NCBI RefSeq assembly: GCF_003334765.1
Contig: NZ_QOWT01000002.1
Source of the DNA: Escherichia coli
GTDB lineage: Bacteria > Pseudomonadota > Gammaproteobacteria > Enterobacterales > Enterobacteriaceae
Length of the DNA: 64,000 nt
Reading direction: 5' to 3' (one strand)
The notes under the pieces were generated by a model. That model ran no database searches and was not told the origin of the DNA. It saw only the letters and a program-made list of their open reading frames with translations. This document shows positions 11,247-37,672 of the stretch, piece after piece. The position numbers were made by a program, and so were the translations under genes. Every line of letters begins with the position of its first letter. Within the stretch, counting starts at the first letter, position 1.

Positions 11247-11408
11247 TTACGCACCAATGCGCCCTTCCTTCTTAAAGCTTTCCATTACTCGCTGATAAAT
11301 CTCAGAATTAACAGACCGACCATTTTCTTCCGCCACCTTGCGTACCAAATCCAATACTTCTTTAGGCCACCGCAAATTGAACTGTGGCATTTTGCTCATT
11401 CCTTTCAT
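11247..11408 (-). CDS. arc: Arc repressor (ribbon-helix-helix)
   Basis: MKGMSKMPQFNLRWPKEVLDLVRKVAEENGRSVNSEIYQRVMESFKKEGRIGA, near-identical to P22 Arc; longer ORF 11247..11471 is an upstream in-frame extension. Confidence 0.9.
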   Translation of the reverse strand: MKGMSKMPQFNLRWPKEVLDLVRKVAEENGRSVNSEIYQRVMESFKKEGRIGA

Positions 11409-11422
11409 GTTCACCTCACAAT

Positions 11423-11443
11423 ATAGGTCCACGGTGGACCTAT
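11423..11443. promoter_or_regulatory. Mnt operator (ATAGGTCCACGGTGGACCTAT)
   Basis: Perfect palindrome matching recalled P22 Omnt. Confidence 0.75.
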
Positions 11444-11450
11444 TGAGAAT

Positions 11451-11471
11451 ATAGTAGAGTGCTTCTATCAT
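11451..11471. promoter_or_regulatory. Arc operator (ATAGTAGAGTGCTTCTATCAT)
   Basis: Matches recalled P22 arc operator within the ant promoter. Confidence 0.7.
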
Positions 11472-11498
11472 GTCAATACACTAACTTGGAGTGATGGC

Positions 11499-11753
11499 AT
11501 GGCTAGAGATGATCCGCACTTTAACTTCCGTATGCCTTTGGAAGTAAGAGAAAAATTGAAATTAAGAGCCGAGGCTAACGGAAGGTCAATGAACTCTGAG
11601 TTATTACAAATCGTTCAGGATGCACTATCAAAACCATCACCGATTACAGGATATCGCGACGAAGCTGAACGCTTGGCTGATCAGCAGGCTGAGCAGTTCA
11701 AGGCTATAGTGTTTGAGACACTTAAAAAGATTTATGAAAAGGATTTGAAATGA
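11499..11753 (+). CDS. mnt: Mnt repressor (ribbon-helix-helix)
   Basis: MARDDPHFNFRMP.EVREKLK.RAEANGRSMNSELLQIVQDALSKPSP matches P22 Mnt. Confidence 0.9.
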   Translation: MARDDPHFNFRMPLEVREKLKLRAEANGRSMNSELLQIVQDALSKPSPITGYRDEAERLADQQAEQFKAIVFETLKKIYEKDLK

Positions 11754-12085
11754 GATTTCTATCACTGTTCTTGTTAGCAGTTGTCTCTTCTTCCAGTGCT
11801 GAGCTGCGCGAGCTTCAAACGGGTAATGACCTTCTTTACAACATTCAACAAGGTAAAAAGGGTGATGATTTTTCATCGCTTTACATTACTGGATATTTGC
11901 GCGGAGTAACTGACTCATTGATACTAATTGGTTCTCTATGTCCTCCTGATGGCGTTGACATGTATCAATACACCGATATCGTTGAGAAATATCTAAACAA
12001 AAACCCAGAATCAAGAAATGAGAGTGCAGTTATACTAACCGCCCTAGCAGTAGGAAAAACATTTCCGTGCAAAAAGAATCAATAA
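11750..12085 (+). CDS. Small secreted protein (signal peptide, two Cys), unknown function; cargo gene at P22 sieA position
   Basis: MRFLSLFLLAVVSSSSA signal peptide; start overlaps mnt stop (ATGA). Confidence 0.6.
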   Translation: MRFLSLFLLAVVSSSSAELRELQTGNDLLYNIQQGKKGDDFSSLYITGYLRGVTDSLILIGSLCPPDGVDMYQYTDIVEKYLNKNPESRNESAVILTALAVGKTFPCKKNQ

Positions 12086-12100
12086 CAATAAGGGCTTAAA

Positions 12101-12490
12101 ATGAAATTGATTATAGCAATGGCTTTCCTTGTCTTCTCGTTTTCTGTCTCAGCAGAGTGCTGGGTCGTTGGAGATATGCACGGAATAAGCTATTCAGAAC
12201 GAAATAATTTTCAACCGGAAGAAGATGGTTTTAGTGGAACATTCATCATTAAGACAAACGGTGAAGATGCCAGTATCACATATTCTGGGACGGATGCGGG
12301 CGGCATGGCTTACAAAGCATTGTCTAAAAACTCCATCATTGGAATCGGCGCGAATGGCGAAACTCAACGAGTTATCGACTCATGGGTAATACATCCTAAT
12401 GGAACAGTTTTAATGTCGAAAACCATTTCTGGTTATGGGAATATGGATTCAACCAAAGCTTTTGTTGGAAAAGTAAAAAGAAAATGTTAA
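12101..12490 (+). CDS. Small secreted beta-rich protein, unknown function
   Basis: MKLIIAMAFLVFSFSVSA signal peptide; 15 bp after the previous ORF. Confidence 0.6.
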   Translation: MKLIIAMAFLVFSFSVSAECWVVGDMHGISYSERNNFQPEEDGFSGTFIIKTNGEDASITYSGTDAGGMAYKALSKNSIIGIGANGETQRVIDSWVIHPNGTVLMSKTISGYGNMDSTKAFVGKVKRKC

Positions 12491-12514: not shown

Positions 12515-14356
12515 TTACTGCTGTGTTGCCTCAGTAGCAAGCAGCGGCCTGATGGCATTTGCAGCGTTACTCAACGCTCTTTCATAGGCTGGCGTTCCAG
12601 CTTTAGTGTTTGCCAGACGTAAGAGAGCATTCCTTGCTGCTTTGGACTCATACAAACGCATCATTGCACCAAAGCCAGCCTCAAGCCCCATTGATACACC
12701 AAGAGTCGCAGTTGCGCCAATCGTCCTTATCCTGTTGGCTTGTGATTGCCCCGTCTGAGTTACTACATTTGCGGTGTCTGACCTTGCTGTTTGCTGTAGA
12801 ACTTCATGAAGAGCATCAAGCTCTTTCATGTGCTTTCCAGAAAAAATAGTGTTGTAAATTTCACCGCCTGACTGAGATTTCAGCTTATTAACTTCAGTGA
12901 TGAACTTGGCTGGAGAGTCACCGGCCTTTTCCGCTATTTTGCTGACGTAAGCTGCACGCATAGCATCTTTCCCTTTATCATCCAGGGCGCTCCATATTCG
13001 TTTCACGTCAGATGGTTTTCTGCTTAATACAACGGTATTTATAAGTTCAGGACTGGCTTCACTGCTTGCCTTGTTGAGCTTGTTAGCAATGTTTTTATTA
13101 AGCACCTTATTATAAACGTTTGCATAATCAGAATTTGCTTTAAGGTATTTTGCTGCGTCTGATGCACCGAGGTTTTTAGCAACTGCGTTACGAAGGTCTT
13201 TTGACATTGCATTCTCTACCATATTGGTAGCTGCTTTTGCCTGGTTGGGGAAGACCATAGCATCTCCCTGAACATTAGATCTAAATGCTGTTCTGTGCTG
13301 ACGCAAGAGATCAAACGTAACATCCAAATCAGTTGCAGGGTTTGCTAATTCTTCACGTAGGTTACGCAAGGATGTAAGCAGGCTTTGATTGGCAGACGTC
13401 CCAAGCCGTTCCTGTCTTGCGATCGCTGTATTCAGAGCATTCATGGTATTTGTGGTATCAACTGCGGCATTACCCATTTTATTGGTGACGTCATTGATAA
13501 CAGCGCCAGCGGCATCCTTCCGCCCCCTTAACGTGGTGGTAAGAGATTTCACCACATCATCAGGGTTGTACTCACCAAAACGGTCAAAATAATTACTTAC
13601 CAGCTTACTACGCGTTGCATATTGCTCCGCTCGCTTTGAGCCTGTCCCGAGCAAAGCCCCCTCGGCATCCTGAGTTAGGCCGCGAGTGAAAGCATTTTTC
13701 GGCGGGATAACATCAGATGTCATTGGTGTCACGCCCATCGATTCTGATGTGGCAATTTTCTTCGCCACTTCTGGCGCAATATCACCTTTTATAGCCGTTA
13801 TTCCACGCCCTATTCCCTTTGCTGCTGCGGAAAGAACACCCTGAGTGGCAAGGTTAACTCCGGCATTTTTAGCTGCATTTTGTGCGAAATCGCCTTTCTG
13901 ATTTGCGGCCTCTGCCAGTGATCCAATAGCCATGCTTCCTGCCGTTCCAACTCCTGGAACTAAATACCCACCAATTGTTTCACCGGCTTGCGCGTAGGGG
14001 TCTGTCGGTCTGTCTACTGGACGATAAACATCATCCAAAACCTTGGGTCCACCAAGCCCCTGACTGATTGCATTAATCAGACTTGCGCCGCCCTGCAATA
14101 CGTCAAATGGTATGTTTACCAGACCACGACCAGCCTGTTCTGCAATTTGCCCTGCACTTTGACCACCAGTGAGCCAATCGCCAGCTTGTTGCATCAATGA
14201 TGGTTCTTCCCGTGTTGGTGCATTATTGGCCTGATTAACTGTTTGTTGCTGAACAGCCTGACCAGCAAAATACTCATCAATGGCGGTGCCAATATCTTCG
14301 GTGCTCGTACCATCAGGAAAGGTAAATGTCTTACCGTTTGCAGTTACTTTCATCAT
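12515..14356 (-). CDS. Ejection (DNA transfer) protein, P22 gp16-like
   Basis: 613 aa, Ala/Gly/Asn/Thr-rich; position and length correspond to P22 gene 16 (synteny-based). Confidence 0.5.
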
Positions 14357-14622
14357 TCCACCGTAAATTGAATGCCTGATTTTGAGGTATATGATCCAAC
14401 CTGATTCCGTGGTTCTCCTGAAGGTGTCGAATCTTGTGCTGGCGCTGCGTCAGTATTCATTGACATATACCGCTTAACGGCACTCCCCAATGATTCACCT
14501 TTTTTAACATCCAACCCCAATATCTGACCGCCATTACGCGATTGTCCAGGGTTGCCATTCGCGCTCATCCACTCGGCTTTAAACTCATTAAACTGCGCGT
14601 TTCGTCGCTCAAGGTTTGCCAT
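14353..14622 (-). pseudogene. Possible C-terminal fragment of the gp20-like ejection protein gene, out of frame with 14565..15482
   Basis: 89 aa ORF overlapping the upstream ORF by 58 nt in another frame; no SD before its ATG. Confidence 0.35.
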
Positions 14623-15482
14623 TGCATCAAGCCATCTTGCGACCGTCTCAGGGTTTCCATGTTTACTGACAGCTTAGGTGCTTCGCTAATCAACTGCTGA
14701 GCCTTTTCCTGCGCTTGCTGCATCTTAAACCCGAACTCTTGCTGATCCAGAGCCAAGCGTTGTGCTGCGATATTGTGCCCAGTCATTGCTGACTGATAGG
14801 AAAGGTTTTGCCCTCTCGCCTGAAGTGCTTCACCAGCCTGATTGCTGCGGATTGTCTCTGCCAGCCTGCCTCGGTCAATCTCACGACCAGCCATCTTGTC
14901 CTGAACAGCAAACGCCTTTTCTGGTCCAAGCGCACCGAGAGACATAGTAGTCAGCATGTGTGATAGCTGCTCTGGATTCTGGATACCTGTCTGAATCATC
15001 CAGTCAGCATTAGCACCAACGCGATTTAACCTGTCCTTGTTGTCAGTAATGAATTTACTGTAGGCTTCCGGTCCCTGAGAAAGAGCGACGTTAGCCCTCA
15101 TGGCTAAATCGCCCATATCGTTGCGTTGCTGATCATTAAGACCGGAAAACGCCTGTTGTGCCTGTGCAACAAACGCTGGATTTTCCTGGGCAAACTTAAA
15201 TAGTCCCGATGGATCACCAGAAGCCCATGCATCAGCGTGAACCTTATTGAACGCACTAATAGCTTTCTGTTGCTGTTCCTGATTGTAAATATCAGCAACT
15301 CCAGCCAGACCACGTAACGCGGTCAGGCCAACGTTATTTGCACCTGAGCGAGCCAGTTCATTGTTTTCGCGGATCAGACCAAGCGTTGCGTTAATGTCGC
15401 TTGCCTTTGGCGCATTCTCATTTTGCGTACCGATGCCAGCCAGAAAACCACCAGAATTAATACCCTGTTGCCACGTAGCCAT
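14565..15482 (-). CDS. Ejection protein, P22 gp20-like (possibly frameshifted near 14600)
   Basis: 305 aa Q/A/N-rich; between gp7-like and gp16-like genes. Confidence 0.45.
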
Positions 15483-15492
15483 TGATTACCCC

Positions 15493-16188
15493 TTAATAAA
15501 GCAGTGAACCAAGCAGACCGATACCAGCACCGATACCAGCACCCCACGGAGTTGATGAACCAATTAATTTCGCAAGTCCAGCCCCAGCAATAGCACCAGA
15601 CGCACCTCCGCCAATAGCAGATTGCATTGCTGATGGTCTGTTGGCATTTGCCGCTGCAAGAGCCGCACTTTGCTGCGAAATCTGACTCATGTTGTTGGCA
15701 TATGTCTGCCCGGCGTTTGCCTGACCTTGCAGTGCGCCAAGACCAATATTTGCCAGATTCTGGTAGTTGTTCATCTGACCAGATAGCCATTGCTGACCAA
15801 GCGTTGGTGCGATTGTTGCTAACTGATTACCGGTTGCAGTGGAACCCAATCCACCTGTTGCTTCCGCTGCCGCCAGACTCTGATAGCGAGCCTGACCAGC
15901 AAGATCTTTGTACTGCTGAGAGTTGTAATACTGGTTAAGTGCCTGACCTTGCCCTTCCAGAGACGATAAGTTCTCGAGGCTGCCGACATACTTATCAGCC
16001 AGAGGAGTAAACGGCTTCAGGTTGTTCATGATGGTGTTGAACTGCTGATTTTGCAGGTCTGCGGCATACTTCTGAGCTTCTGCTGCATACTTTGCGCTTT
16101 TATCAGAACTGCCACCTTTCCCGCCTTTTTCAGGGCAATAAGGTTCCTCGCCGCGCAGTTTTCTGCCCAGCTTAAATGCATATAACAT
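15493..16188 (-). CDS. Ejection protein, P22 gp7-like (C-terminal 231 codons of the 460-aa ORF)
   Basis: From MLYAFKLGRKLRGEEP... the ORF is Q/N/G/A-rich with a Gly-rich hydrophobic C-terminus; length matches P22 gp7 (about 229 aa). Confidence 0.45.
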   Translation of the reverse strand: MLYAFKLGRKLRGEEPYCPEKGGKGGSSDKSAKYAAEAQKYAADLQNQQFNTIMNNLKPFTPLADKYVGSLENLSSLEGQGQALNQYYNSQQYKDLAGQARYQSLAAAEATGGLGSTATGNQLATIAPTLGQQWLSGQMNNYQNLANIGLGALQGQANAGQTYANNMSQISQQSAALAAANANRPSAMQSAIGGGASGAIAGAGLAKLIGSSTPWGAGIGAGIGLLGSLLY

Positions 16189-16875
16189 GGCTAACGCCGA
16201 GATGCCGTATTGCGCATAGCTCATACAATCAATTTCGCCTTCGCAAAGTACAACCGCCCTCACGCCAGCGTCCAGAGCCTGCCATCCGAACAGACAAGGT
16301 TCGCAATCACCTTCTGCCATAATGACTTTCTTCCCGTCCGGGCGCTCAGTGCTGATTCGCTTGACCTGCAACAACTCACCATCGCGTTTGTACGGAATCA
16401 CCAGAGCATCCAGTTCTCGCTCTCCATTCCACACCTTGCCGCTGACAACCTCGTAGCGCTTTACGATTTCTGGCGATATGCCACGCGATTGCAGGTACTC
16501 AAGATGGGATTCTGTTCTGGTAACGTAGCGGGCGATTTTCTTGCGATCAGGTCTGGAGAATTTCTTCTCACGTCTGGCATCGAAATGGTGATCGTCATCC
16601 TTGATACCGAGAAATGCTTTCGCTTCCTGCATAGCCTGATGCAGGTTAATTCCACGACATGCCATCCACAAATCAAGCATGTCACCGCCGTCTCCCTCAG
16701 CGAAATCAGCCCATTTTTTCTTGCCGCTAAGGTTGACCTTAAGGCTGTTTCCCTTGTCACCGTTGACGTTACCGGCAACCCACTCATGCCCCTCTTTCTT
16801 GCCGTTTGGCAACAGGTGCGGAGCCACCCTGTCAACCTGCGCCCAAAGCAGGTCGCTAAGTTCACTTGGCGTCAT
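16189..16875 (-). pseudogene. Truncated toprim-domain DNA primase (N-terminal 229 codons) fused in frame to the gp7-like gene
   Basis: Degenerate zinc-finger-like WADFAEGDGGDMLDLWM then toprim motif VVLCEGEIDCMS; no downstream DxD motif; directly follows O-like gene. Confidence 0.5.
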
Positions 16876-16982: not shown

Positions 16983-17843
16983 TCACCTGTCGAAAAACAC
17001 GTAGCCAGTTTTCGATACGGTGATTGCGGATGATGGTTTGGATTGTGGTTGAATGGTTTCTGGCTTTTCGTCGTTCCAGCGCTGACCGTTCAGGTAGCTC
17101 GATGGTAACAACCTGTCGAATCCGAACTGCTTACCATTCCTGCATGCGATGTCTTCTGCCAGCATCGTGGCAAACTCGCTTGCCGTACCCCTGGTAGTTT
17201 TACGCCATTCCCTGAACTGTGTTCTGAATGCCGAAGCTGCGTTTTTCTTCCCGGCTTTCCGCATGCCTGCACACCAGAATATTTCCTCGAATGCCTTGTC
17301 GGTTTCTTCGTGACGGTCAGGTGATTTTTCACACTCCGTCCGAACACTTTCGGACATAGTGTTTTTATTATTTCTTTTTTCTTTTGTAATAGTTTCTTTT
17401 GTGTGTCCCTGTTTTGGTGACAGCGCTGTCACCGTTTTGGTGACACTTTTTGTCACCAATGCGGTGACATTATCACCAGAGTAGTGACACCCTTCGATTT
17501 GCCATTCCTCGATGTTCTTGTTAGGCCCGATTTGCTGGCCTTCGCGAAGGATAACCTTCATCGCGATAAGCTCATTCTTGGCCTTGTTTACCTTCTGTCT
17601 TGGCAGCCTGGTAATTTGAGCTAACTGACTATCAGAGATGCGATCCATCTTTTTACCGTAGCCGTATGTTTTACGGCATATGGCGTGGGCAACCTTGCTC
17701 TGATTTTTCGTTAAATCTGCGCCGATAAGCTCTTCATACAGGGCATTTGCAAGACGGGTATAACCATCTTCAACTTCTGCCACACGACGCTCCACAGGCC
17801 GTTGTGAAGGCCTTAAATGTGTTACGGTTGCAAGATTACTCAT
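16983..17843 (-). CDS. Replication initiator, lambda O-like (P22 gene 18-like)
   Basis: 286 aa; follows cII; iterons and AT-rich stretch lie inside the gene as in lambda ori. Confidence 0.65.
17359..17490. other. Phage replication origin: GGTGACA/TGTCACC iterons plus adjacent AT-rich region inside the O-like gene
   Basis: TTTTGGTGACAGCGCTGTCACCGTTTTGGTGACACTTTTTGTCACCAATGCGGTGACATTATCACC next to TTTTTATTATTTCTTTTTTCTTTTG. Confidence 0.6.
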
Positions 17844-18016: not shown

Positions 18017-18295
18017 TCAGGCCTCGAAGAATTCGCCGTTCTTCGGGGCTTTTTCTTTTGTCAGCATTCTGGCTACTTGCTTAGCCAGTTCCGCCAACTC
18101 CTCGTCTTCAACACCCCATTCAAGAACAGCAAGAAGCATTCCCATTTTGGGGATGAAGCTGTCTTTCCATCGCGAAATTTGCGATTCATTAATCCCTAAC
18201 GCGTCGGCAACCTTTCGCTGACCACGTACAGCAATTCGATTCAGGATGTTGCTTGTAATTGCATTCGCTTTCTTGCGAGTACTTGTAAGTTGCAT
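18017..18295 (-). CDS. CII-like transcriptional activator
   Basis: ...[46 protein letters not shown] resembles lambda CII ...[25 protein letters not shown]. Confidence 0.8.
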
Positions 18296-18353
18296 ATGTA
18301 AGTATTTCCTTAACTAATAAGAAGTTATGCGCATCAACTTATGCGCGTTGTAT

Positions 18354-18397
18354 TCCCGCATTTCGGCGGGAATGAGGACCATGACTGTTAAAGAGCG
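18354..18397 (-). promoter_or_regulatory. nutR: boxA CGCTCTTTAACA (18386..18397) and boxB hairpin TCCCGC-CGAAAT-GCGGGA (18354..18371)
   Basis: Read on minus strand just downstream of cro; boxB identical to the nutL copy. Confidence 0.6.
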
Positions 18398-18403
18398 GTG
18401 TTA

Positions 18404-18604
18404 CTATTTGTTTTTCTTGTTGCTTGGGAAAGGACGAACTTCCTCTCCAATCACACTGCCATCAGGCTTTACCGTAACCATAATGTTACGGCCTGCCAGA
18501 ATGGCCTTGCTGATAGCGCACTGGATTACACCAAAGTCACTGGCTGCTTTAGCCTGTCCATGGATTTTGGCGTAATCGGCAAGTGTCATTCGAATCATAT
18601 GCAC
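18404..18604 (-). CDS. cro: Cro repressor
   Basis: ...[59 protein letters not shown] resembles lambda Cro. Confidence 0.85.
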
Positions 18605-18629
18605 TCTCCGTTATTAACCATGAACAAAG

Positions 18630-18693
18630 AATACTACAGGTATTCAAAGCAATCAATACTCAGGGTATTTTTAGTTTAAGTACCTTAGCTATT
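18630..18693. promoter_or_regulatory. OR operators: AATACTACAGGTATT (18630..18644), AATACTCAGGGTATT (18655..18669), variant AGTACCTTAGCTATT (18679..18693)
   Basis: 15-bp palindromes at about 24-25 bp spacing between divergent cro and cI. Confidence 0.6.
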
Positions 18694-18704
18694 AGAATTA
18701 AGCT

Positions 18705-19421
18705 ATGGAAAATAAAAAATCACTGACGACAGAACAGCTCGAAGACGCTAAGCGGCTTAAGGCTTTGTATGAGTCAAAAAAGAAAGAATTGGGAATAACC
18801 CAATACTCAATCGCTGATGAACTGGGTATCACCCAAGGAGCGGTAGGGCATTATCTTAATGGCAGAAACGCGCTAAACGTTGAGGTCGCATCTGGTTTTG
18901 CACGTTTGTTGCAAGTCTCAATTGCTGATTTTAGCCAGTCAATTGCTGCCAAGGTTGCAGAACAGGCAGAAAGCCTTAAGAGCGATGCCAACGTAAGGTA
19001 TGCAGGGGAATACAGAGCAGGAAAGAGGTATCCGGTGTTAAGCAGTATCCAGGCTGGCTCGTGGTGTGAAGCATGCGAACCATACACCATTAAAGACATA
19101 GATGTTTGGCTTGAGTCTGACGCGCATATTCAAGGTAATGCGTTCTGGCTTAAAGTGGAAGGTGATTCAATGACGGCACCGGTTGGGTTAAGCATTCCAG
19201 AGGGAACATTCGTTCTTTTCGATACCGGAAGGGAGGCGATCAACGGCAGCTTGGTCATAGCAAAACTTTCTGACTCTAACGAAGCAACATTCAAGAAGCT
19301 GATAATCGACGGCGGAAATAAATACCTCAAGGGACTTAACCCTGCATGGCCTCTCGTGCCAATCAATGGAAACTGCAAGATTATAGGCGTTGCAATTGAG
19401 ACAAAACTAAGGCTGGTTTGA
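18705..19421 (+). CDS. cI: CI repressor (HTH plus S24 LexA-like autopeptidase domain)
   Basis: 238 aa; N-terminal HTH (QYSIADELGITQGAVGHYLNG), C-terminal ...KVEGDSM...ATFKKL; no SD before ATG, consistent with a leaderless pRM transcript. Confidence 0.85.
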   Translation: MENKKSLTTEQLEDAKRLKALYESKKKELGITQYSIADELGITQGAVGHYLNGRNALNVEVASGFARLLQVSIADFSQSIAAKVAEQAESLKSDANVRYAGEYRAGKRYPVLSSIQAGSWCEACEPYTIKDIDVWLESDAHIQGNAFWLKVEGDSMTAPVGLSIPEGTFVLFDTGREAINGSLVIAKLSDSNEATFKKLIIDGGNKYLKGLNPAWPLVPINGNCKIIGVAIETKLRLV

Positions 19422-21084: not shown

Positions 21085-21164
21085 GCATACCAATAACGCT
21101 TCACGAGAGGTGTTTATTCATGAGCGTAAACGCTGATTAATGAACGCAGTTGATAGGATATAAA

Positions 21165-21677
21165 ATGGCATTTATAAAGATTCTTGAATTAATTTCCCTA
21201 AGTGAGATTAATAATGTTGTCAAATATAACCCTATTTCTGGTGAGTTCACATGGCTAAAATCTTATGGAGCAAGAAAGATAGGTGGAACTGCCGGAACAA
21301 TAACAACAAGCGGCTACTTAAGGATTTTCATTAACGGAAGACACTATGCTGCACATAGACTTGCATGGATTATCACTTTCGGTGTTGAGCCTGAAGGTAT
21401 TATCGACCATATAAATGGCATAAAGACAGATAACAGAATTTGCAATCTGAGGCTTGCAACTTACTCACAGAATTCAATGAATAGTAAAATAAATACCCTC
21501 AACAAATCAGGTTGCAAAGGAGTCACATGGAAGAAGGAAAGTAGAAAGTGGGCTGCCTATGGGAAATTAAACGGGAAGAAAAAACATCTAGGGTACTTTA
21601 ATGAATTAGAAGATGCCAAAAAAGCTTACTGCGACTTTGCCAGAAAGCATCACGGCGAATTCTACAGGAGCAAATAA
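21165..21677 (+). CDS. HNH endonuclease with AP2-like DNA-binding domain
   Basis: HINGIKTDNRICNLRLATYSQN HNH motif; C-terminal GVTWKKESRKWAAYGKLNGKKKHLGYFNELEDAKKAY AP2-like; ORF track starts at TTG 21150. Confidence 0.7.
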   Translation: MAFIKILELISLSEINNVVKYNPISGEFTWLKSYGARKIGGTAGTITTSGYLRIFINGRHYAAHRLAWIITFGVEPEGIIDHINGIKTDNRICNLRLATYSQNSMNSKINTLNKSGCKGVTWKKESRKWAAYGKLNGKKKHLGYFNELEDAKKAYCDFARKHHGEFYRSK

Positions 21678-25924: not shown

Positions 25925-25940
25925 TTGCAGGTTCGATTCC
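25925..25940. repeat. Internal partial argW copy TTGCAGGTTCGATTCC (T-arm segment)
   Basis: 16-nt identity with 5601..5616 of argW, located upstream of torI. Confidence 0.6.
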
Positions 25941-25959: not shown

Positions 25960-26160
25960 ATGCAACACGAACTACAGCCTGATTCACTGGTTGATTTGAA
26001 ATTCATCATGGCCGATACTGGCTTCGGTAAAACCTTCATCTATGACCGGATTAAGTCCGGCGACCTGCCAAAAGCCAAAGTTATCCACGGGCGAGCAAGA
26101 TGGTTATATCGTGACCATTGTGAATTCAAAAATAAGCTCTTAAGCCGCGCCAATGGGTAA
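25960..26160 (+). CDS. torI: TorI: recombination directionality factor (excisionase) and TorR inhibitor
   Basis: 66 aa MQHELQPDSLVDLKFIMADTGFGKTFIYDRIKSGDLPKAKVIHGRARWLYRDHCEFKNKLLSRANG; recognised. Confidence 0.85.
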   Translation: MQHELQPDSLVDLKFIMADTGFGKTFIYDRIKSGDLPKAKVIHGRARWLYRDHCEFKNKLLSRANG

Positions 26161-26232: not shown

Positions 26233-26248
26233 TCTGCAGGGGACACCA
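26233..26248. repeat. attR core: 16-nt direct repeat CTGCAGGGGACACCAT
   Basis: Identical to argW 3' end at 5616..5631. Confidence 0.7.
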
Positions 26249-26343
26249 TCCTTGTGTTTATCCCTAAAACCACATAAAAACCGTAAATTAAATTCGAACT
26301 AGCAGGCCGAATAAGGCACACCAGGAACTCGTGGTTTTATTCA

Positions 26344-27279
26344 TTATGAAGTGGTTTTTACCTGTTCTCTTAGCCAGATAATAAACGCTTCAATTTTTGG
26401 CCACTGCCTGCCCGGTAATGTGGTGATGTAATAATGCTGATGGCATTTCACCGTCATATCGCCAAACGGCGCGACGAGCTCACCACTGGCAAGCCTTTTT
26501 TGTACCAGGCGTTTTCTTCCCATCGCCACCCCAATATGATTCATCGCGGCAATAACAGCTAAATCAGAACGATCAAAGCCAATTCCAGAAGATGTCGGCA
26601 AATTAACCGCATAATGTTGCGCCCAACTATGCCATTCATCCGTACCGGAGTCGTTGCTCCATGCCTGTCTGTCATGGAGCAACGTACAGTGACACAGGTT
26701 AATTACCGTGTTGGTTAAAGCATGTCTTTGAGCGTATTCCGGGCTACATACTGGCAGGATTTCTTCATCCATCAGAAAGTGATGAGTGAGTTGCGCTGAC
26801 GGCGCATCATCAAAGTAGATCGCCAAATCGATTCCGGCACGTTGCAGATTGACGTTGTCATTACCAGTGAGCACGGTGAGCGAAATAGACGGATACCGGC
26901 GTGTAAAGTCACCTAATGCGGGCACCAACCAGCATTGGGCGATAGAGGGCCGGGAATACAGAGTTAACGTTCCCGATAACTCCTGATTTTTGATATCAAG
27001 AATTTCCTGGTTCAGGGTATCCAGCGACGATTTTAGCGCCCAATAAACACGTTTCCCCTCGTGCGTTAATTCCACTTTGCGATGGGAACGAACAAACAAC
27101 TGAATGCCCAATTCTTCTTCCAGCTGATTGATACGGTGACTTACCGCACTGGGGCTCAGCGACAATTCCTCTGCCGCCAGGGCGAAGGACTGATGCCTGG
27201 CAGCCACTTCAAAAGTATGCATTTTTGATAATTGCCAGCCGTTAAGCAGCCGATTTCTTATTTCACGAAGGGGTTCCAT
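26344..27279 (-). CDS. dsdC: LysR-family activator of D-serine utilisation DsdC
   Basis: Recognised; ORF 26344..27285, start probably MEPLREIRN. Confidence 0.9.
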   Translation of the reverse strand: MEPLREIRNRLLNGWQLSKMHTFEVAARHQSFALAAEELSLSPSAVSHRINQLEEELGIQLFVRSHRKVELTHEGKRVYWALKSSLDTLNQEILDIKNQELSGTLTLYSRPSIAQCWLVPALGDFTRRYPSISLTVLTGNDNVNLQRAGIDLAIYFDDAPSAQLTHHFLMDEEILPVCSPEYAQRHALTNTVINLCHCTLLHDRQAWSNDSGTDEWHSWAQHYAVNLPTSSGIGFDRSDLAVIAAMNHIGVAMGRKRLVQKRLASGELVAPFGDMTVKCHQHYYITTLPGRQWPKIEAFIIWLREQVKTTS

Positions 27280-27496
27280 AATCACCTCATTTTTCGCTTA
27301 AGTGTAAAAAAATAGCGGCAAAATTTCAGCTATGAGATGAGCTAAAGTAAACCATATCTCAATTCACCTTCATTTTTAGATGTAAATCACTCCATTGATG
27401 CAATTTACCTCATGTGAAAGGCAAATTTTATCGTTTGTCAGCCTGCGTTGTTTTTTTGTCCAATATCATCAGGTTAATCACAGGGGAAGGTGAGAT

Positions 27497-30287: not shown

Positions 30288-31826
30288 TCACCCAACGCCT
30301 TTCGCTGTAAACGGCGGTTTCGCAAACCAAACCAAAACCGTAAGTAAGATAAAAGCAATAGCCGCCATACGGAAAATCTCATTTGCAGAAATAGAAAGTG
30401 ACTGCTGGGTTATTTCATTATTAATTTCATTAAGAACTCCTGAAAGCGAACCATAATATTTATCCATAATTTGTGACGATGAATTAAACACGGGGTTAAA
30501 TTGATCGATGGTTGCTGTCAACTGACTATGGTGTAACGATTCGCGTCGTCCCCACAGCGTCATTGTCAACGACGTACCAACTGATCCTGACAAGGTACGA
30601 AAAAAATTACTCATACTCGAGGCATTGGCAAATTTATTATCTGGCAAGCCTGAAAACGAAATCGTTGTTAAGGGTAAAAAGAAACAGGCAACGGCGAATC
30701 CCTGAAAAAACTGCGGCAAAATGATGCCTGTAAAATCAATCGTTGGCATAAATGTCACAGAACGCCAGTAATAGCAAACCGCATACATCAAAAAACTAAA
30801 TGTCACTAACAACCGCATGTCTATTTTGTTGCCATAACGTCCTATCAAAGGTGAAATTAATAGTGGCATGATGCCGATGGGCGCATAAGCAAGTCCGGCC
30901 CATATCGCATTATACCCCATCGTTTCCTGGAGTAACTGCGGCATAAGGACGATCGCTCCAGAGTAAAATAAATACGCGCATGTGATACTCACAATACCAA
31001 TGGTGAAGTTACGGGACTTAAACAAACTGAGATCAAGAATCGGGTTCTCTGAGGTCGACTCCCAAATGACTAAAGAGATCAGAGAAATAACTGATACTAC
31101 TGTTAATATTATTATTGTACTCGAGTTGAACCAATCCAGATCGCGCCCTTTATCAAGCATAATTTGCAAGCCACCAACACCGAGCACTAACAGGGTCAGT
31201 CCTGGTAGATTCATTTTGACCGGTGAAGTCTCAGTTTCTCTTCCTTTAAGTAAGGTTAAGCATAATGTCAGGACGATAATCCCCATAGGGACATTGATTA
31301 AAAATATCCAACCCCAGCTAAAGTTATCACAAATATAACCGCCCAATATCGGCCCACATATCGGAGCGATAATCACGGTCATTGACCATAATGCCAGAGC
31401 AAATGTTCTTTTTTCTGGCGGATAATTCCTTAATAATAAACTCTGTGACAGTGGAATTAACGGCCCCGCCATTAACCCCTGAACGACTCTAAAAAATATC
31501 AGCACATCAAGATTGGTCGATAGGCTACACATTAATGAAGACAGCGAAAAAAAAGTGACTGAAAGTAAAAATAATCTTAATTCGCCTATTCTTTGTGCCA
31601 ACCTGCCAGTAACAGGGATCGCAATGGCATTTGCTACACCAAACGAGGTGATAACCCAGGTGCCTTCGTCTGTTGATGCTCCCAGAAAGCCAGATATTGT
31701 CGGTATTGCGACGTTAGAAATAGTGGAATCCAACATTTGCATAAATGTCGCTAATGACAATGCAATAGTGACGCACCATAACGTCCCACCGGTTAATGGT
31801 GCCGGAGTTGATTTAGTGATTGCCAT
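30288..31826 (-). CDS. emrY: MFS multidrug efflux pump EmrY
   Basis: 512 aa, 14-TM MFS; start overlaps emrK stop. Confidence 0.9.
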   Translation of the reverse strand: MAITKSTPAPLTGGTLWCVTIALSLATFMQMLDSTISNVAIPTISGFLGASTDEGTWVITSFGVANAIAIPVTGRLAQRIGELRLFLLSVTFFSLSSLMCSLSTNLDVLIFFRVVQGLMAGPLIPLSQSLLLRNYPPEKRTFALALWSMTVIIAPICGPILGGYICDNFSWGWIFLINVPMGIIVLTLCLTLLKGRETETSPVKMNLPGLTLLVLGVGGLQIMLDKGRDLDWFNSSTIIILTVVSVISLISLVIWESTSENPILDLSLFKSRNFTIGIVSITCAYLFYSGAIVLMPQLLQETMGYNAIWAGLAYAPIGIMPLLISPLIGRYGNKIDMRLLVTFSFLMYAVCYYWRSVTFMPTIDFTGIILPQFFQGFAVACFFLPLTTISFSGLPDNKFANASSMSNFFRTLSGSVGTSLTMTLWGRRESLHHSQLTATIDQFNPVFNSSSQIMDKYYGSLSGVLNEINNEITQQSLSISANEIFRMAAIAFILLTVLVWFAKPPFTAKGVG

Positions 31827-32989
31827 TAAAGTTGTCCATTATGCGAAATAATGTTGCTAATTTCTTTTTCTATCGGACTGGTATCGATAACTAAAGCCTT
31901 ACTGGTATAAGCCGGCATGGAGGTCACGGTTGAAGCCAGCTCAGGCATCTCGGCAATGTCTTCGTTCTTCGTATCAATAGTTGCTGTCATCGATAAACCA
32001 ATACGCAAGGGGTGTTCCATGAGTTCTTTTGGATCAAGAGAAACTTCAACCGGTACACGCTGAACGATTTTGATCCAGTTCCCTGTCGCATTTTGTGCAG
32101 GTAATAAGGAGAACGCATTGCCGGTTCCCATATTGATCCCTGTCACCCGACCATGAAACACAACATTTTCACCATAAAGATCGCTGATAATATTGACCGA
32201 TTGACCAATCCGTACATCCGTGAGTTGTGTTTCTTTAAAGTTGGCATTAACCCACATTTGACGTGCCGGTACGACAGCCATTAACGATTGTCCGGGGCTC
32301 ACTGTTTCGCCGACCTGAACACTTCTCTGGGCAATATAGCCGGTAACCGGACTCTTAATATCCGTACGTTTAAGCGCCAACCAGGCTTCTTTAGTTGCAT
32401 CCGCCGCTTCAACGACTTGTGGCTGACGGTTTAATGGTGTGTTCATTACTAAAGCTTTATTCGCTTTATAAGCCTGGATAGCGGCATTCAATGCCGCTTT
32501 GCTACTTATTAACGTATCTTTGGTATGCTCCAGCGTTTCTTTTGAAATAACCCCCTGCTTCGCTAACGGCACTCGACGGTTATAATCTTCTAAAGATTGT
32601 TGATACTGAATACGTGCTGAAGCGACTTCGGCACTGTATTGTTTATCCTGTAAGTATAGTTTATTCGTTTGCCGAACAATATTTGCCAGATTATTTTTAG
32701 CTTTATTGAGTGCGATAGTGGCATCAGTTTTATCCAGTGAAACTAAAATGTCACCTTGTCGAACGTAGTTCGTATCTTTATGATTAACGACAGTGACACT
32801 ACCTGAGACTTGTGCAGAAATTGGATCTGCATTCCCCGTGACATAGGCGTCATCTGTACTAATCATGTCTTCTAATTCCATTGACCAATAGGCATAGGCA
32901 CCTGAAAACGCAATAAATAAAACTACCGCCAATAAAGAAAAGTATTTTCTTCTGTTAGAATGTTTTTTATTTGAATTAATCTGTTCCAC
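31826..32989 (-). CDS. emrK: Membrane fusion (periplasmic adaptor) protein EmrK
   Basis: 387 aa, single N-terminal TM then coiled-coil/lipoyl domains. Confidence 0.9.
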   Translation of the reverse strand: MEQINSNKKHSNRRKYFSLLAVVLFIAFSGAYAYWSMELEDMISTDDAYVTGNADPISAQVSGSVTVVNHKDTNYVRQGDILVSLDKTDATIALNKAKNNLANIVRQTNKLYLQDKQYSAEVASARIQYQQSLEDYNRRVPLAKQGVISKETLEHTKDTLISSKAALNAAIQAYKANKALVMNTPLNRQPQVVEAADATKEAWLALKRTDIKSPVTGYIAQRSVQVGETVSPGQSLMAVVPARQMWVNANFKETQLTDVRIGQSVNIISDLYGENVVFHGRVTGINMGTGNAFSLLPAQNATGNWIKIVQRVPVEVSLDPKELMEHPLRIGLSMTATIDTKNEDIAEMPELASTVTSMPAYTSKALVIDTSPIEKEISNIISHNGQL

Positions 32990-33162
32990 TATTATCTCTC
33001 ATTTCTCATAGATGAAATTTATGAATTGAATGAAAAGAGCATTCATTCTTCATATCAAACACAGTGCATGTGTTGCACATTATCCCAGGAACGTTGGAGG
33101 CCTAATTTAAATGAGGTGCAAAAAAAACAACAGAGGACTAAACCGTGGCTTTTGCAATACAA

Positions 33163-33189
33163 TTCTTACGCCTGTAGGATTAGTAAGAA
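33163..33189. promoter_or_regulatory. EvgA-box-like inverted repeat TTCTTAC-N13-GTAAGAA in emrK-evgA intergenic region
   Basis: Perfect 7-bp inverted repeat arms; recalled EvgA binding region. Confidence 0.4.
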
Positions 33190-33404
33190 GACTTATAGTG
33201 CCAACTTGAAACTATAAATCATCGGTACAATCCCTGATTTTATTGTTGACATTTCATTTATGCCGACTATTTATATGGTATACTTGTCGAATTATCTTAA
33301 AGGAAGCTCAGATTTTCTTATTTTTATTGAGAAAATGAGATGACGCCTTATGTCTGTATTACTACAGGGAGAAGGGAGATGCTTCATTGCAAAGGGAATA
33401 ATCT

Positions 33405-34019
33405 ATGAACGCAATAATTATTGATGACCATCCTCTTGCTATCGCAGCAATTCGTAATTTATTGATCAAAAACGATATTGAAATCTTAGCAGAGTTGACT
33501 GAAGGCGGAAGTGCCGTTCAGCGGGTGGAAACACTTAAGCCTGATATCGTCATCATTGATGTCGATATCCCCGGAGTTAACGGTATCCAGGTGTTAGAAA
33601 CGCTGAGGAAGCGCCAATATAGCGGAATTATTATTATCGTCTCCGCTAAAAATGACCATTTTTACGGGAAACATTGTGCTGATGCTGGCGCTAATGGTTT
33701 CGTGAGTAAAAAAGAAGGCATGAACAATATCATTGCGGCTATTGAAGCTGCAAAAAATGGCTACTGCTATTTCCCCTTCTCTCTCAACCGGTTTGTTGGA
33801 AGTTTAACGTCCGACCAGCAAAAACTCGACTCCTTATCGAAACAAGAAATTAGTGTCATGCGGTATATTCTTGATGGCAAGGATAATAATGACATTGCTG
33901 AAAAAATGTTCATCAGCAACAAAACTGTCAGCACTTATAAAAGTCGCCTGATGGAAAAATTAGAATGTAAATCACTGATGGATCTTTACACATTCGCACA
34001 ACGTAACAAAATCGGCTAA
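33405..34019 (+). CDS. evgA: Response regulator EvgA (REC plus LuxR-type HTH)
   Basis: 204 aa; recognised. Confidence 0.95.
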   Translation: MNAIIIDDHPLAIAAIRNLLIKNDIEILAELTEGGSAVQRVETLKPDIVIIDVDIPGVNGIQVLETLRKRQYSGIIIIVSAKNDHFYGKHCADAGANGFVSKKEGMNNIIAAIEAAKNGYCYFPFSLNRFVGSLTSDQQKLDSLSKQEISVMRYILDGKDNNDIAEKMFISNKTVSTYKSRLMEKLECKSLMDLYTFAQRNKIG

Positions 34020-34023
34020 CCAC

Positions 34024-37000
34024 ATGAAGTTTTTACCCTATATTTTTCTTCTCTGTTGTGGTCTTTGGTCGACCATAAGTTTCGCAGACGAAGATTACAT
34101 CGAATATCGTGGCATCAGTAGTAACAACCGTGTCACACTTGATCCACTACGTCTGAGCAACAAGGAATTACGTTGGTTAGCGAGCAAAAAAAATCTTGTG
34201 ATTGCAGTACATAAGTCCCAAACGGCTACGTTGTTGCATACCGATTCGCAGCAACGGGTTCGTGGTATTAATGCTGATTATTTAAATCTTTTAAAAAGAG
34301 CGTTAAATATCAAATTAACACTCCGGGAATACGCAGATCATCAAAAAGCAATGGACGCGCTTGCAGAAGGTGAAGTCGATATAGTGTTATCACATTTAGT
34401 TACTTCGCCGCCTCTTAATAATGACATTGCTGCAACCAAACCATTGATAATTACCTTTCCGGCGCTGGTAACCACCCTTCACGACTCAATGCGACCGCTT
34501 ACCTCACCAAAACCAGTAAATATTGCTCGGGTAGCAAATTACCCCCCAGATGAGGTAATTCATCAATCATTTCCAAAAGCAACAATTATCTCTTTTACAA
34601 ATTTATATCAGGCATTAGCATCCGTCTCAGCTGGGCACAATGATTACTTTATTGGTAGTAACATCATTACCAGCAGTATGATTTCCCGCTATTTCACTCA
34701 CTCCTTAAATGTAGTGAAATATTATAACTCGCCGCGTCAATATAATTTTTTCTTGACCAGAAAAGAATCTGTCATTCTTAATGAAGTACTCAATAGATTT
34801 GTTGATGCTTTAACAAATGAAGTTCGCTATGAAGTATCACAAAATTGGCTTGATACAGGAAACCTGGCCTTTCTGAACAAACCATTAGAACTCACTGAAC
34901 ATGAAAAACAGTGGATTAAGCAGCATCCCAATTTAAAGGTGCTGGAAAATCCTTACTCGCCCCCCTATTCTATGACGGATGAAAATGGCTCGGTTCGGGG
35001 CGTTATGGGGGACATTCTTAATATTATTACCTTGCAAACAGGTTTAAATTTTTCTCCGATCACCGTTTCACACAATATCCATGCTGGAACACAGCTTAGC
35101 CCCGGAGGATGGGATATAATACCTGGCGCTATTTATAGTGAAGATCGAGAAAATAATGTTTTATTTGCTGAAGCCTTCATAACAACGCCTTACGTTTTTG
35201 TCATGCAAAAAGCGCCTGACAGTGAACAAACATTAAAAAAAGGAATGAAAGTTGCCATTCCATATTATTATGAGCTGCATTCGCAATTAAAAGAGATGTA
35301 TCCGGAGGTTGAATGGATACAGGTCGATAATGCCAGCGCTGCATTTCACAAGGTTAAGGAAGGTGAACTTGATGCTCTGGTCGCGACACAGCTAAATTCG
35401 CGTTACATGATCGATCATTACTATCCTAATGAACTTTATCATTTTCTTATTCCTGGCGTTCCGAATGCATCGCTTTCGTTCGCTTTTCCTCGCGGAGAAC
35501 CGGAACTTAAGGATATTATTAATAAAGCACTGAATGCAATTCCCCCAAGCGAAGTTCTGCGCCTGACGGAAAAATGGATTAAAATGCCCAATGTGACCAT
35601 TGACACATGGGACCTATATAGCGAGCAATTTTATATTGTTACGACATTATCCGTTTTATTAGTTGGCAGTAGCCTTTTATGGGGATTCTACCTGTTACGC
35701 TCAGTTCGTCGTCGTAAAGTCATTCAGGGTGATTTAGAAAACCAAATATCATTCCGAAAAGCACTCTCGGATTCCTTACCGAATCCAACTTATGTTGTAA
35801 ACTGGCAAGGTAATGTCATTAGTCATAATAGTGCTTTTGAACATTATTTCACTGCGGATTACTACAAAAATGCAATGTTACCATTAGAAAACAGTGACTC
35901 ACCCTTTAAAGATGTTTTTTCTAATGCGCATGAAGTCACAGCAGAAACGAAAGAAAATCGAACAATATACACACAGGTATTTGAAATTGATAATGGCATC
36001 GAGAAAAGATGCATTAATCACTGGCATACATTATGCAATCTTCCTGCAAGTGACAATGCAGTATATATTTGTGGTTGGCAAGATATTACTGAAACGCGTG
36101 ATCTAATTAATGCACTCGAGGTAGAAAAAAATAAAGCGATAAAGGCTACCGTAGCAAAAAGTCAGTTTCTGGCAACGATGAGTCACGAAATAAGAACACC
36201 AATAAGCTCTATTATGGGCTTCCTGGAACTTCTGTCGGGTTCTGGTCTTAGCAAGGAGCAACGGGTGGAGGCGATTTCACTTGCCTACGCCACCGGACAA
36301 TCACTCCTCGGCTTAATTGGTGAAATCCTTGATGTCGACAAAATTGAATCGGGTAACTATCAACTTCAACCACAATGGGTCGATATCCCTACTTTAGTCC
36401 AGAACACTTGTCACTCTTTCGGTGCGATTGCTGCAAGCAAATCGATCGCATTAAGTTGCAGCAGTACGTTTCCTGAACATTACCTGGTTAAGATCGACCC
36501 TCAGGCGTTTAAGCAGGTCTTATCAAATTTACTGAGTAATGCTCTCAAATTTACCACCGAGGGGGCAGTAAAAATTACGACCTCCCTGGGTCACATTGAT
36601 GACAACCACGCTGTTATCAAAATGACGATTATGGATTCTGGAAGTGGATTATCGCAGGAAGAACAACAACAACTGTTTAAACGCTACAGCCAAACAAGTG
36701 CAGGTCGTCAGCAAACAGGTTCTGGTTTAGGCTTAATGATCTGCAAAGAATTAATTAAAAATATGCAGGGCGATTTGTCATTAGAAAGTCATCCAGGCAT
36801 AGGAACAACATTTACGATCACAATCCCGGTAGAAATTAGCCAGCAAGTGGCGACTGTCGAGGCAAAAGCAGAACAACCCATCACACTACCTGAAAAGTTG
36901 AGCATATTAATCGCGGATGATCATCCGACCAACAGGCTATTACTCAAACGCCAGCTAAATCTATTAGGATATGATGTTGATGAAGCCACTGATGGTGTGC

Positions 37001-37617
37001 AAGCGCTACACAAAGTCAGTATGCAACATTATGATCTGCTTATTACTGACGTTAATATGCCGAATATGGATGGTTTTGAGTTGACTCGCAAACTCCGTGA
37101 GCAAAATTCTTCCTTACCCATCTGGGGGCTTACAGCCAACGCACAGGCTAACGAACGTGAAAAAGGGTTAAGTTGCGGCATGAACTTATGTTTGTTCAAA
37201 CCGTTGACCCTGGATGTACTGAAAACACATTTAAGTCAGTTACACCAAGTTGCGCATATTGCACCTCAGTATCGCCACCTTGATATCGAAGCCCTGAAAA
37301 ATAATACGGCGAACGATCTACAACTGATGCAGGAGATTCTCATGACTTTCCAGCATGAAACGCATAAAGATCTACCCGCTGCGTTTCAAGCACTAGAAGC
37401 TGGCGATAACAGAACTTTCCATCAGTGTATTCATCGCATCCACGGTGCGGCTAACATCCTGAATTTGCAAAAGTTGATTAATATTAGCCATCAGTTAGAA
37501 ATAACACCTGTTTCAGATGACAGTAAGCCTGAAATTCTTCAGTTGCTGAACTCTGTAAAAGAACACATTGCAGAGCTGGACCAGGAGATTGCTGTTTTCT
37601 GTCAGAAAAATGACTAA
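34024..37617 (+). CDS. evgS: Hybrid sensor histidine kinase EvgS
   Basis: 1197 aa; periplasmic domains, H-box SHEIRTP, ATPase, REC and HPt domains. Confidence 0.95.
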   Translation: MKFLPYIFLLCCGLWSTISFADEDYIEYRGISSNNRVTLDPLRLSNKELRWLASKKNLVIAVHKSQTATLLHTDSQQRVRGINADYLNLLKRALNIKLTLREYADHQKAMDALAEGEVDIVLSHLVTSPPLNNDIAATKPLIITFPALVTTLHDSMRPLTSPKPVNIARVANYPPDEVIHQSFPKATIISFTNLYQALASVSAGHNDYFIGSNIITSSMISRYFTHSLNVVKYYNSPRQYNFFLTRKESVILNEVLNRFVDALTNEVRYEVSQNWLDTGNLAFLNKPLELTEHEKQWIKQHPNLKVLENPYSPPYSMTDENGSVRGVMGDILNIITLQTGLNFSPITVSHNIHAGTQLSPGGWDIIPGAIYSEDRENNVLFAEAFITTPYVFVMQKAPDSEQTLKKGMKVAIPYYYELHSQLKEMYPEVEWIQVDNASAAFHKVKEGELDALVATQLNSRYMIDHYYPNELYHFLIPGVPNASLSFAFPRGEPELKDIINKALNAIPPSEVLRLTEKWIKMPNVTIDTWDLYSEQFYIVTTLSVLLVGSSLLWGFYLLRSVRRRKVIQGDLENQISFRKALSDSLPNPTYVVNWQGNVISHNSAFEHYFTADYYKNAMLPLENSDSPFKDVFSNAHEVTAETKENRTIYTQVFEIDNGIEKRCINHWHTLCNLPASDNAVYICGWQDITETRDLINALEVEKNKAIKATVAKSQFLATMSHEIRTPISSIMGFLELLSGSGLSKEQRVEAISLAYATGQSLLGLIGEILDVDKIESGNYQLQPQWVDIPTLVQNTCHSFGAIAASKSIALSCSSTFPEHYLVKIDPQAFKQVLSNLLSNALKFTTEGAVKITTSLGHIDDNHAVIKMTIMDSGSGLSQEEQQQLFKRYSQTSAGRQQTGSGLGLMICKELIKNMQGDLSLESHPGIGTTFTITIPVEISQQVATVEAKAEQPITLPEKLSILIADDHPTNRLLLKRQLNLLGYDVDEATDGVQALHKVSMQHYDLLITDVNMPNMDGFELTRKLREQNSSLPIWGLTANAQANEREKGLSCGMNLCLFKPLTLDVLKTHLSQLHQVAHIAPQYRHLDIEALKNNTANDLQLMQEILMTFQHETHKDLPAAFQALEAGDNRTFHQCIHRIHGAANILNLQKLINISHQLEITPVSDDSKPEILQLLNSVKEHIAELDQEIAVFCQKND

Positions 37618-37672
37618 ATAGCGGCTCCCACAATGTTCAAATGTGGGAGCTATTTACCAGCACATCTTACAT

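Follow-up and report, generated by a model that had tools for sequence, protein, structure and literature searches.

KplE1 (CPS-53), the prophage at argW of Escherichia coli K-12, and other defective lambdoid or P22-like prophages lack replication, lysis and head genes through internal deletion. We analyzed a 64,000-nt stretch of E. coli DNA (hereafter the window) that carries, at argW, a prophage which has likewise lost genes of these kinds. It resembles KplE1 in its attachment site, in the position of intS beside argW and in a torI-type excisionase gene beside dsdC, and the att core CTGCAGGGGACACCAT, presumably the one used by KplE1, is present at both of its ends. The window prophage appears to differ from KplE1 in the genes that survive (cI/cro/cII/O, genes 7-20'-16, immI and tailspike) and in its deletion junction, which is a readable in-frame fusion. 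We are highly confident that this fusion, a 460-codon open reading frame (ORF), was left behind by one deletion of ~17.8 kb in a P22-like prophage at argW, that its protein is most likely non-functional and that its breakpoint is one of three recurrent, TA-centered hexamers.

The prophage spans 20.6 kb between intact att cores, from argW to dsdC. Its left flank holds fadL, yfdF, mlaA, yfdC and the tRNA-Arg(CCT) gene, and positions 25001-50000 of the window align over their full length, at 99.9% identity, with E. coli chromosomes (dsdX, dsdA, emrY, evgS and others). The main features outside the fusion are:

5616..5631, plus strand: attL core CTGCAGGGGACACCAT, a 16-nt repeat at the 3' end of argW (tRNA-Arg CCT, 5556..5630)
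5756..6949: intS, next after attL
7833..10199, minus strand: tailspike with P22 head-binding domain (Pfam Head_binding in the identical locus L005; annotation of relatives)
10300..11753: immI region, with ant at 10300..11178 (minus), arc at 11247..11471 (minus) and mnt at 11499..11753 (plus) (Pfam Bro-N/P22_AR_C, Arc and Repressor_Mnt in L005)
12515..14356, minus strand: gene 16 (DNA transfer protein), intact (PHROG 770, E 7e-280)
14565..15482, minus strand: gene 20 (ejection protein), truncated to 305 aa (PHROG 917, positions 1-277/509)
16983..17843, minus strand: O-like replication initiator, intact, directly upstream of the fusion (PHROG 277/2365; Pfam Phage_rep_O in L005)
18017..19421: immunity region, with cII at 18017..18295 (minus), cro at 18404..18604 (minus) and an S24-type repressor at 18705..19421 (plus) (Pfam in L005)
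25960..26160: TorI-like excisionase gene, adjoining attR
26234..26249, plus strand: attR core CTGCAGGGGACACCAT, the second copy of the 16-nt repeat
26344..27285: dsdC

An O-antigen acetyltransferase gene and an early-left operon with RecT, Kil and CIII also lie between the att sites. Genes 7, 20 and 16 follow one another in order and are succeeded by immI (mnt/arc/ant) and a tailspike gene with the P22 head-binding domain, which is the layout of P22-like phages (Lederbergvirus), and the prophage DNA is 96-99% identical to that of HK620 and UPF_BP1. The genome is not a complete P22-like one: everything from nt 685 of the primase gene to the end of gene 14 is absent, an interval of 17.8 kb in phage Sf101.

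Some further features were recorded along the element. The early-left operon includes, between CIII/Kil and the N region, a gene for a 175-aa HNH endonuclease with a weak AP2-type domain (21150..21677, plus strand; PHROG 99, E 1e-68). Between gene 16 and mnt, in the position of sieA in P22, two small ORFs with apparent signal peptides occupy 11750..12490 (plus strand); the product of one (111 aa) matches Pfam Rap1a, a type VI immunity-like family, and that of the other (129 aa) matches PHROG 2651. A second 16-nt repeat, TTGCAGGTTCGATTCC, is found in the argW T-arm (5601..5616) and at 25925..25940, just upstream of the torI-like gene and ~300 nt inside attR, and may be the trace of an older integration.

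The chimeric reading frame and the missing interval

The original prediction, made from the DNA letters alone, had described a two-part minus-strand ORF of 460 aa placed directly after the O-like gene, and this is what we find, with an ATG start and the following parts:

15493..16875, minus strand: chimeric ORF, consisting of a primase 5' fragment, 5 nt of the gene 14/7 junction and the complete gene 7 (megablast, Pfam, PHROG)
16192..16875, minus strand: primase fragment, 684 nt or 228 codons, the 5' part of a 1881-nt toprim primase/helicase gene, without DxD motif and helicase (DNA identity of 98.8-99.6% to Sf101, mEp043 and Stx2 phages; Pfam)
16192..16193, minus strand: crossover dinucleotide TA, common to the primase Leu228 codon (TTA) and the gene 14 stop codon (TAG) (three-way alignments)
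16189..16193, minus strand: gene 14 remnant, namely the stop codon TAG (16193..16191) and a 2-nt spacer CC (HK620 and Sf101 annotation, alignment)
15493..16188, minus strand: complete gene 7, for a P22 gp7-type ejection protein of 231 codons plus stop, with its own ATG at 16188..16186 (Pfam P22_gp7, PHROG 598)

The two halves of the ORF show about 98-99.7% DNA identity, each to a separate gene. In a megablast search of 50,697 phage records, ORF nt 1-684 aligned at 98.4-99.6% identity with the 5' end of the primase/helicase gene in Sf101, mEp043, APC_JM3.2, 24B, Min27 and several Stx2a phages, and nt 683-1367 aligned with the end of gene 14 and with gene 7 in UPF_BP1 (98.4%), HK620 (96.3%) and also N7; in HK620 and UPF_BP1, nt 683-1383 correspond to the gene 14 stop codon followed by gene 7. 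The primase-like nature of the N-terminus, proposed beforehand, is borne out by 97-99% identity between residues 1-228 and the N-terminus of 626-aa toprim primase/helicases, and by a match of residues ~1-228 to PHROG 239 'DNA primase/helicase' (E 2.4e-48, profile positions 9-216/801). The Pfam Toprim_2 model is matched at residues 209-230 over its first 25 of 88 positions only (E 0.031). As had also been noticed, the toprim glutamate motif EGEID is kept and the downstream DxD motif is missing: after ...YGISAL the native protein continues with SVPFGGG...SMDVDDVG... and then the helicase domain, and SMDVDD falls beyond the breakpoint. The C-terminal helicase (PF13481/PF03796 in the native protein, with GHGKT at residue 371) is absent as well, the primase part of the ORF stopping at residue 228. 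The first Cys is not met before residue 73 when the translation is read through, and hence the ORF has no CxxC zinc finger. The second half, previously judged gp7-like, matches Pfam P22_gp7 (PF25688) at residues 230-458 over model positions 1-229/230 (E 2.6e-131) and PHROG 598 'DNA ejection' (E 1e-100), and the domain boundaries given by Pfam and PHROG are consistent with the breakpoint seen in the DNA.

Three-way alignment resolved this breakpoint to the base. The primase parent reads ...CATCTCGGCGT-TA-TCCGTGCC..., the late-region parent reads ...CACGGGAGA-TA-GCCATGTTATAT..., and the window reads ...CATCTCGGCGT-TA-GCCATGTTATAT..., with primase on the left, late region on the right and only 2 nt common to both parents. 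Homology switches after ORF nt 684 (window 16192), 3 nt ahead of the gene 7 ATG; the original estimate of a switch at codon 230, near 16188, was accurate to within 5 nt. In the frame that arrives from the primase fragment, the gene 14 stop codon is not read as a stop, and the ORF runs on into gene 7. The proposed fusion of primase and gp7 thus stands as an in-frame read-through, with the refinement that gene 7 is complete and retains its own start codon. The native Shine-Dalgarno sequence GGGAG upstream of that codon has been deleted and replaced by CTCGGCGTTAGCC.

On Sf101, the two junction ends lie 17.8 kb apart, the interval between them comprising positions 30471..38742 together with 1..9493, against a predicted loss of roughly 20 kb; this size is taken from mosaic relatives. 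No intact ancestor of this particular prophage was found. Added to the 20.6 kb that remain, 17.8 kb gives the 38-39 kb usual for this phage group. In Sf101 the interval comprises the primase C-terminus, ninA-ninH, phosphatase, antiterminator, the lysis genes (holin, endolysin and spanins) and the head genes through gene 14 (terminase, portal, scaffold, coat, adaptor, gp10, needle and gene 14). The idea that a deletion had joined the replication module to the end of the late operon therefore holds for the deletion itself and needs amending for its right end, which lies at the ejection-protein genes, with genes 7, 20' and 16, immI and the tailspike gene remaining beyond it.

The best account of these observations is as follows. 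In a P22-like prophage (Lederbergvirus, KplE1/HK620-type) integrated at E. coli argW, a single deletion of ~17.8 kb brought primase/helicase nt 684 up against the stop codon of gene 14, the crossover lying in the shared TA. The primase gene lost its DxD motif and its helicase; gone with them are the nin region, Q and the lysis genes, the genes for terminase, portal, scaffold and coat, and genes 4, 10, 26 and 14. With the gene 14 stop codon out of frame, the primase fragment reads on into an intact gene 7. The remnant, with its immunity region, immI, tailspike, O-antigen acetyltransferase, intS, xis and both att sites, is unable to replicate, lyse its host or package DNA. It has been inherited vertically and is still decaying, as a later 286-nt deletion in gene 20 shows.

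An intact phage with the same two-part architecture was sought and not found. None of the 50,697 phage records holds both halves in one place or covers at least 80% of the ORF at one site, and the halves do not occur together in any of 5,426 complete E. coli genomes, in which 1,253 records match. Among 5.8 billion protein clusters, neither diverged nor intact phages showed a primase N-terminus followed by gp7, and only the identical sequence gave 100% coverage. The exact junction is likewise absent from GTDB representative genomes, IMG/VR and JGI metagenomes.

Recurrent breakpoints in the primase gene

Other chimeras stop being primase at the same residue as the window ORF, and their DNA ends at the same nucleotide (...GGCGT-TA), each time with a different partner:

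L008 (ERR3328735): primase nt 684 joined to the terminase large subunit, shared TAT
L009 (SRR34233890): primase nt 684 joined to coat, shared TATC
L010 (SRR6072747): primase nt 684 joined to roi (nin region), shared TA
L024 (ENA metagenome scaffold): primase nt 684 joined to DNA downstream of gene 16
P0008 (NCBI): primase ending at the same residue, joined to a tail fiber, at the protein level only

Two further positions in the gene are used in the same way. At nt 901 (AACGGTGT-TA-CCG), the partner is Dam in L016 and the middle of gene 7 in L017. At nt 355 (CGCTACGT-TA-CCAG), it is gene 16 in L025 and the terminase C-terminus in L026; nt 355 also forms the right-hand boundary of two deletions, one beginning in O (L024) and the other in erf (the finished genome LR-03, L036). 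Two further proteins assigned to nt 355, P0147 and P0151, reuse, at the protein level, the gene 7 and Dam partner sites of L017 and L016, respectively. TA is present in both parents at the crossover of every hotspot junction whose parent sequence is known, and identity beyond this TA is no more than expected by chance. The products include in-frame fusions as well as out-of-frame ones (L010 and L017).

The three sites read GTTACC, GTTATC and GTTACC (GTTAYC). On the coding strand of the primase gene (1881 nt), just four hexamers of the form GNTAYC exist among 64 TA dinucleotides, and three of these are the hotspots. Junction ends fall on the three sites in 14 of 22 mapped cases and 11 of 15 DNA-verified ones, counts that refer to detectable junctions, as the chimeras were found via primase N-termini; under a generous null, P is about 6e-26, to be read with the motif having been defined post hoc, after the data were seen. 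On the partner side, 4 of 9 sites carry the same hexamer, compared to 6.75% of all TA dinucleotides in Sf101 (p = 0.002). Searches of GTDB representative genomes, IMG/VR and JGI metagenomes for junctions in which the next base differs from the native gene returned none, and the pattern of site 2 gave only chance 16-mer matches in IMG/VR.

Ordinary illegitimate recombination at microhomology, blind to sequence, could in principle leave a junction such as that of the window, which has just 2 nt in common between its parents, with any coincidence with other deletions due to chance or to selection. Events of this kind do occur in the same gene and family: L011 (shared AA), L018 (9/10 nt), the nt 504 junction of LR-03 (L036b) and the nt 488 junction of isolate 48 (L037) lie within the primase gene, the junction of E. 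coli GF4 shares AAG, and the gene 20 deletion in the window runs between repeats agreeing at 8/9 nt. Since these coexist with the TA-centered events, the primase gene harbors two classes of junction. We nonetheless consider it very unlikely that the window junction belongs to the sequence-blind class, as eleven DNA-verified junctions sit on three of the 64 TA dinucleotides of the gene and the same site can serve as left end or right end (L024, L036). Selection on the product does not explain the base-level coincidence either, because several products (L010, L017) are out of frame, and selection on a fusion protein thus cannot fix the position. The recurrence of independent deletions, to the base, at GTTAYC, with TA in both parents, instead indicates a non-random breakpoint and points towards a TA-centered, sequence-preferring break-and-join step, which would be distinct from ordinary microhomology slippage.

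As a scar, the window ORF is an instance of ordinary prophage decay, of a well-known kind; its breakpoint class is one for which we found no description in the literature. The recurrence matters more than the scar: deletions that arose independently in nature and disabled prophages return, with single-nucleotide precision, to the same three hexamers.

Several other arrangements of this gene were observed. Protein P0002 (385 aa, in a cluster of 307 member sequences, and apparently widespread) is another primase-gp7 fusion, made of primase residues 1-312 and the last ~70 residues of gp7. In E. coli isolate 48 (L037, NZ_CM194529.1, 900-3300), a related prophage shows an inversion-like rearrangement. 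Nin genes come after part of O and primase nt 1-488, and beyond them O', DUF2740 and cII run in the opposite orientation. An in-frame, intein-like insertion of 1026 nt (342 aa) interrupts the Walker A loop (GHGK|...THN|TEVV) of the same primase/helicase gene in phage 24B (L014, 1501-4407), and also in Min27, Stx2a_F403/F451, phiXuzhou21, Stx2_16002 and phiKp_30. L010 carries a NUMOD4-HNH homing-endonuclease-like gene (5009-5500) inserted at the very start of the primase gene, with no megablast match in the 50,697 phage records, and both L010 and L011 have further HNH genes inside the late region, one of which splits the gp10 gene of L011.

Inheritance and function of the fusion

The only database protein covering the full query is an identical 460-aa protein (P0001, an NCBI 'hypothetical protein'). 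Its gene is present on no fewer than 10 contigs, among them GCA_965137835.1 and the Logan assemblies of ERR11457625 and SRR3951470, and because these derive from independent runs the primase-gp7 junction is real and inherited. The SRR3951470 contig matches the window at every position of 15,370 nt. The remaining two (L005 and L006) equal the window except for a single mismatch and an intact gene 20 (471 aa). The window and SRR3951470 share a later lesion in that gene, which splits it into ORFs of 305 and 89 aa:

14653..14661, minus strand: junction of a 286-nt deletion in gene 20, between imperfect repeats ACATGGA(A/T)A; absent from L005 and L006

From the presence of the primase-gp7 junction in contigs with an intact gene 20, it follows that the large deletion came first and that gene 20 decayed later, in a sublineage. 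Sister remnants of the same prophage family at the same locus have deletions that are independent of the one in the window. E. coli GF4 has also lost the late region, through its own Dam'-gp26' junction, which is not of the TA class. E. coli LR-03 is reduced to erf', a 151-nt piece of the primase gene and the part from gp16' onward, with one junction at the primase hotspot nt 354/355 and another at nt 504.

A frame that stays open over 460 codons, and a protein that is identical on at least 10 contigs, could reflect a fusion maintained by selection, e.g. as a domesticated exclusion or defense factor. We regard this as improbable, even more so than a sequence-blind origin of the junction. Identity among the contigs is explained by recent common descent, their DNA being 100% identical over 15 kb, the fusion is limited to one lineage and occurs in no phage record, its toprim domain ends at profile position 25 of 88, the neighboring gene 20 is decaying, and other primase fusions have quite different partners and are often out of frame. 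That the junction might be an assembly chimera, as its absence from phage records, complete E. coli genomes, GTDB representative genomes, and IMG/VR and JGI metagenome contigs could suggest, has a negligible probability, as it recurs in one NCBI assembly and at least two independently assembled runs, on contigs of up to 181 kb, and a 2-nt overlap cannot yield a de Bruijn graph mis-join.

Judging from its domain content, the primase-gp7 protein is most likely a non-functional by-product, since the primase stump would be inactive, gene 7 has been cut off from its native Shine-Dalgarno sequence and the element builds no capsid into which an ejection protein could be packed. The N-terminal stump is best read as unable to bind the catalytic metal or to unwind DNA. 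Were the repressor to lose its activity, the rightward early promoter would drive transcription across cro, cII and O and on into the chimera, gene 20' and gene 16. Selection probably preserves the immunity region, immI, the O-antigen acetyltransferase and the tailspike region. The fusion ORF would thus be better annotated as a chimeric pseudogene than as a 'hypothetical protein'.

Candidate activities at TA

The TA-class junctions are what a 2-nt staggered cut-and-rejoin reaction would leave, as they combine a 2-bp palindromic overlap, use of the site in either polarity and a short, semi-palindromic sequence preference. We tentatively propose, at somewhat less than even confidence, that an unrecognised E. 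coli or prophage activity breaks and rejoins DNA at TA within GNTAYC (best GTTAYC) with a 2-bp overlap. P22-like and lambdoid prophages would thereby lose their lethal late regions time and again, and the window junction would be one of at least 11 independent products. If a specific enzyme does make these cuts, it would represent a mechanistic driver of prophage domestication, the positions at which prophages break would be predictable, and prophage 'grounding' would be partly enzymatic and site-preferring rather than random decay.

Several known activities and features were considered and set aside. Deletion by IntS at a secondary site fits poorly with an att core, CTGCAGGGGACACCAT, that has no TA and is unlike GTTAYC. 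A break at an intein homing site would be expected at residue 371/372, where the 342-aa intein of the 24B, Min27 and phiKp_30 primases resides, not at residues 118, 228 and 300; the sole break near the intein site is that of L018 (primase to portal) at residue 375, three codons beyond. A conserved phage role for the hexamers, as origin, nick site or primase site, is contradicted by their absence from the Salmonella alleles of epsilon34, ES18, SEN22 and SI8. Predicted hairpins are weak (-8.7 kcal/mol, z = -1.9, and -3.4 kcal/mol, z = -1.6), and the termini of deleted segments, in alignments judged by eye, show no consistent pattern of inverted repeats. Gyrase cuts at YRT|GNY, RusA 5' of CC, IntI at G|TT and RuvC at WTT|S. 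Against these consensus sequences, the sites lack the TG of gyrase, RusA and integron IntI would place the crossover in the wrong register, and WTT|S does not fit; for Hin/Gin-type sites, the predicted crossover would be 12 nt off.

Candidates for the activity include a serine-recombinase-like enzyme, religation of TA cohesive ends, a nicking strand-transferase and a TA-specific transposase. Serine recombinases acting at pseudo-sites and transposases with TA targets (IS630/Tc1-mariner) resemble the hotspots in that exactly 2 bp (TA) are shared; no responsible recombinase or transposase of these types was identified in the loci examined, and no transposon is left at any junction. Deletions anchored at fixed nucleotides are also on record elsewhere: they reportedly occur at nick sites in the rolling-circle origins of M13 and pC194, and illegitimate recombination at a pentamer is said to be promoted by vaccinia topoisomerase when this enzyme is produced in E. 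coli. We know of no rolling-circle origin, HUH nickase or type IB topoisomerase associated with this primase gene. As in those systems, one end of the primase deletions is fixed to the nucleotide at a short motif and the other varies, with minimal identity between the two; unlike them, the primase sites work as left or right end, and both partners carry the palindromic TA.
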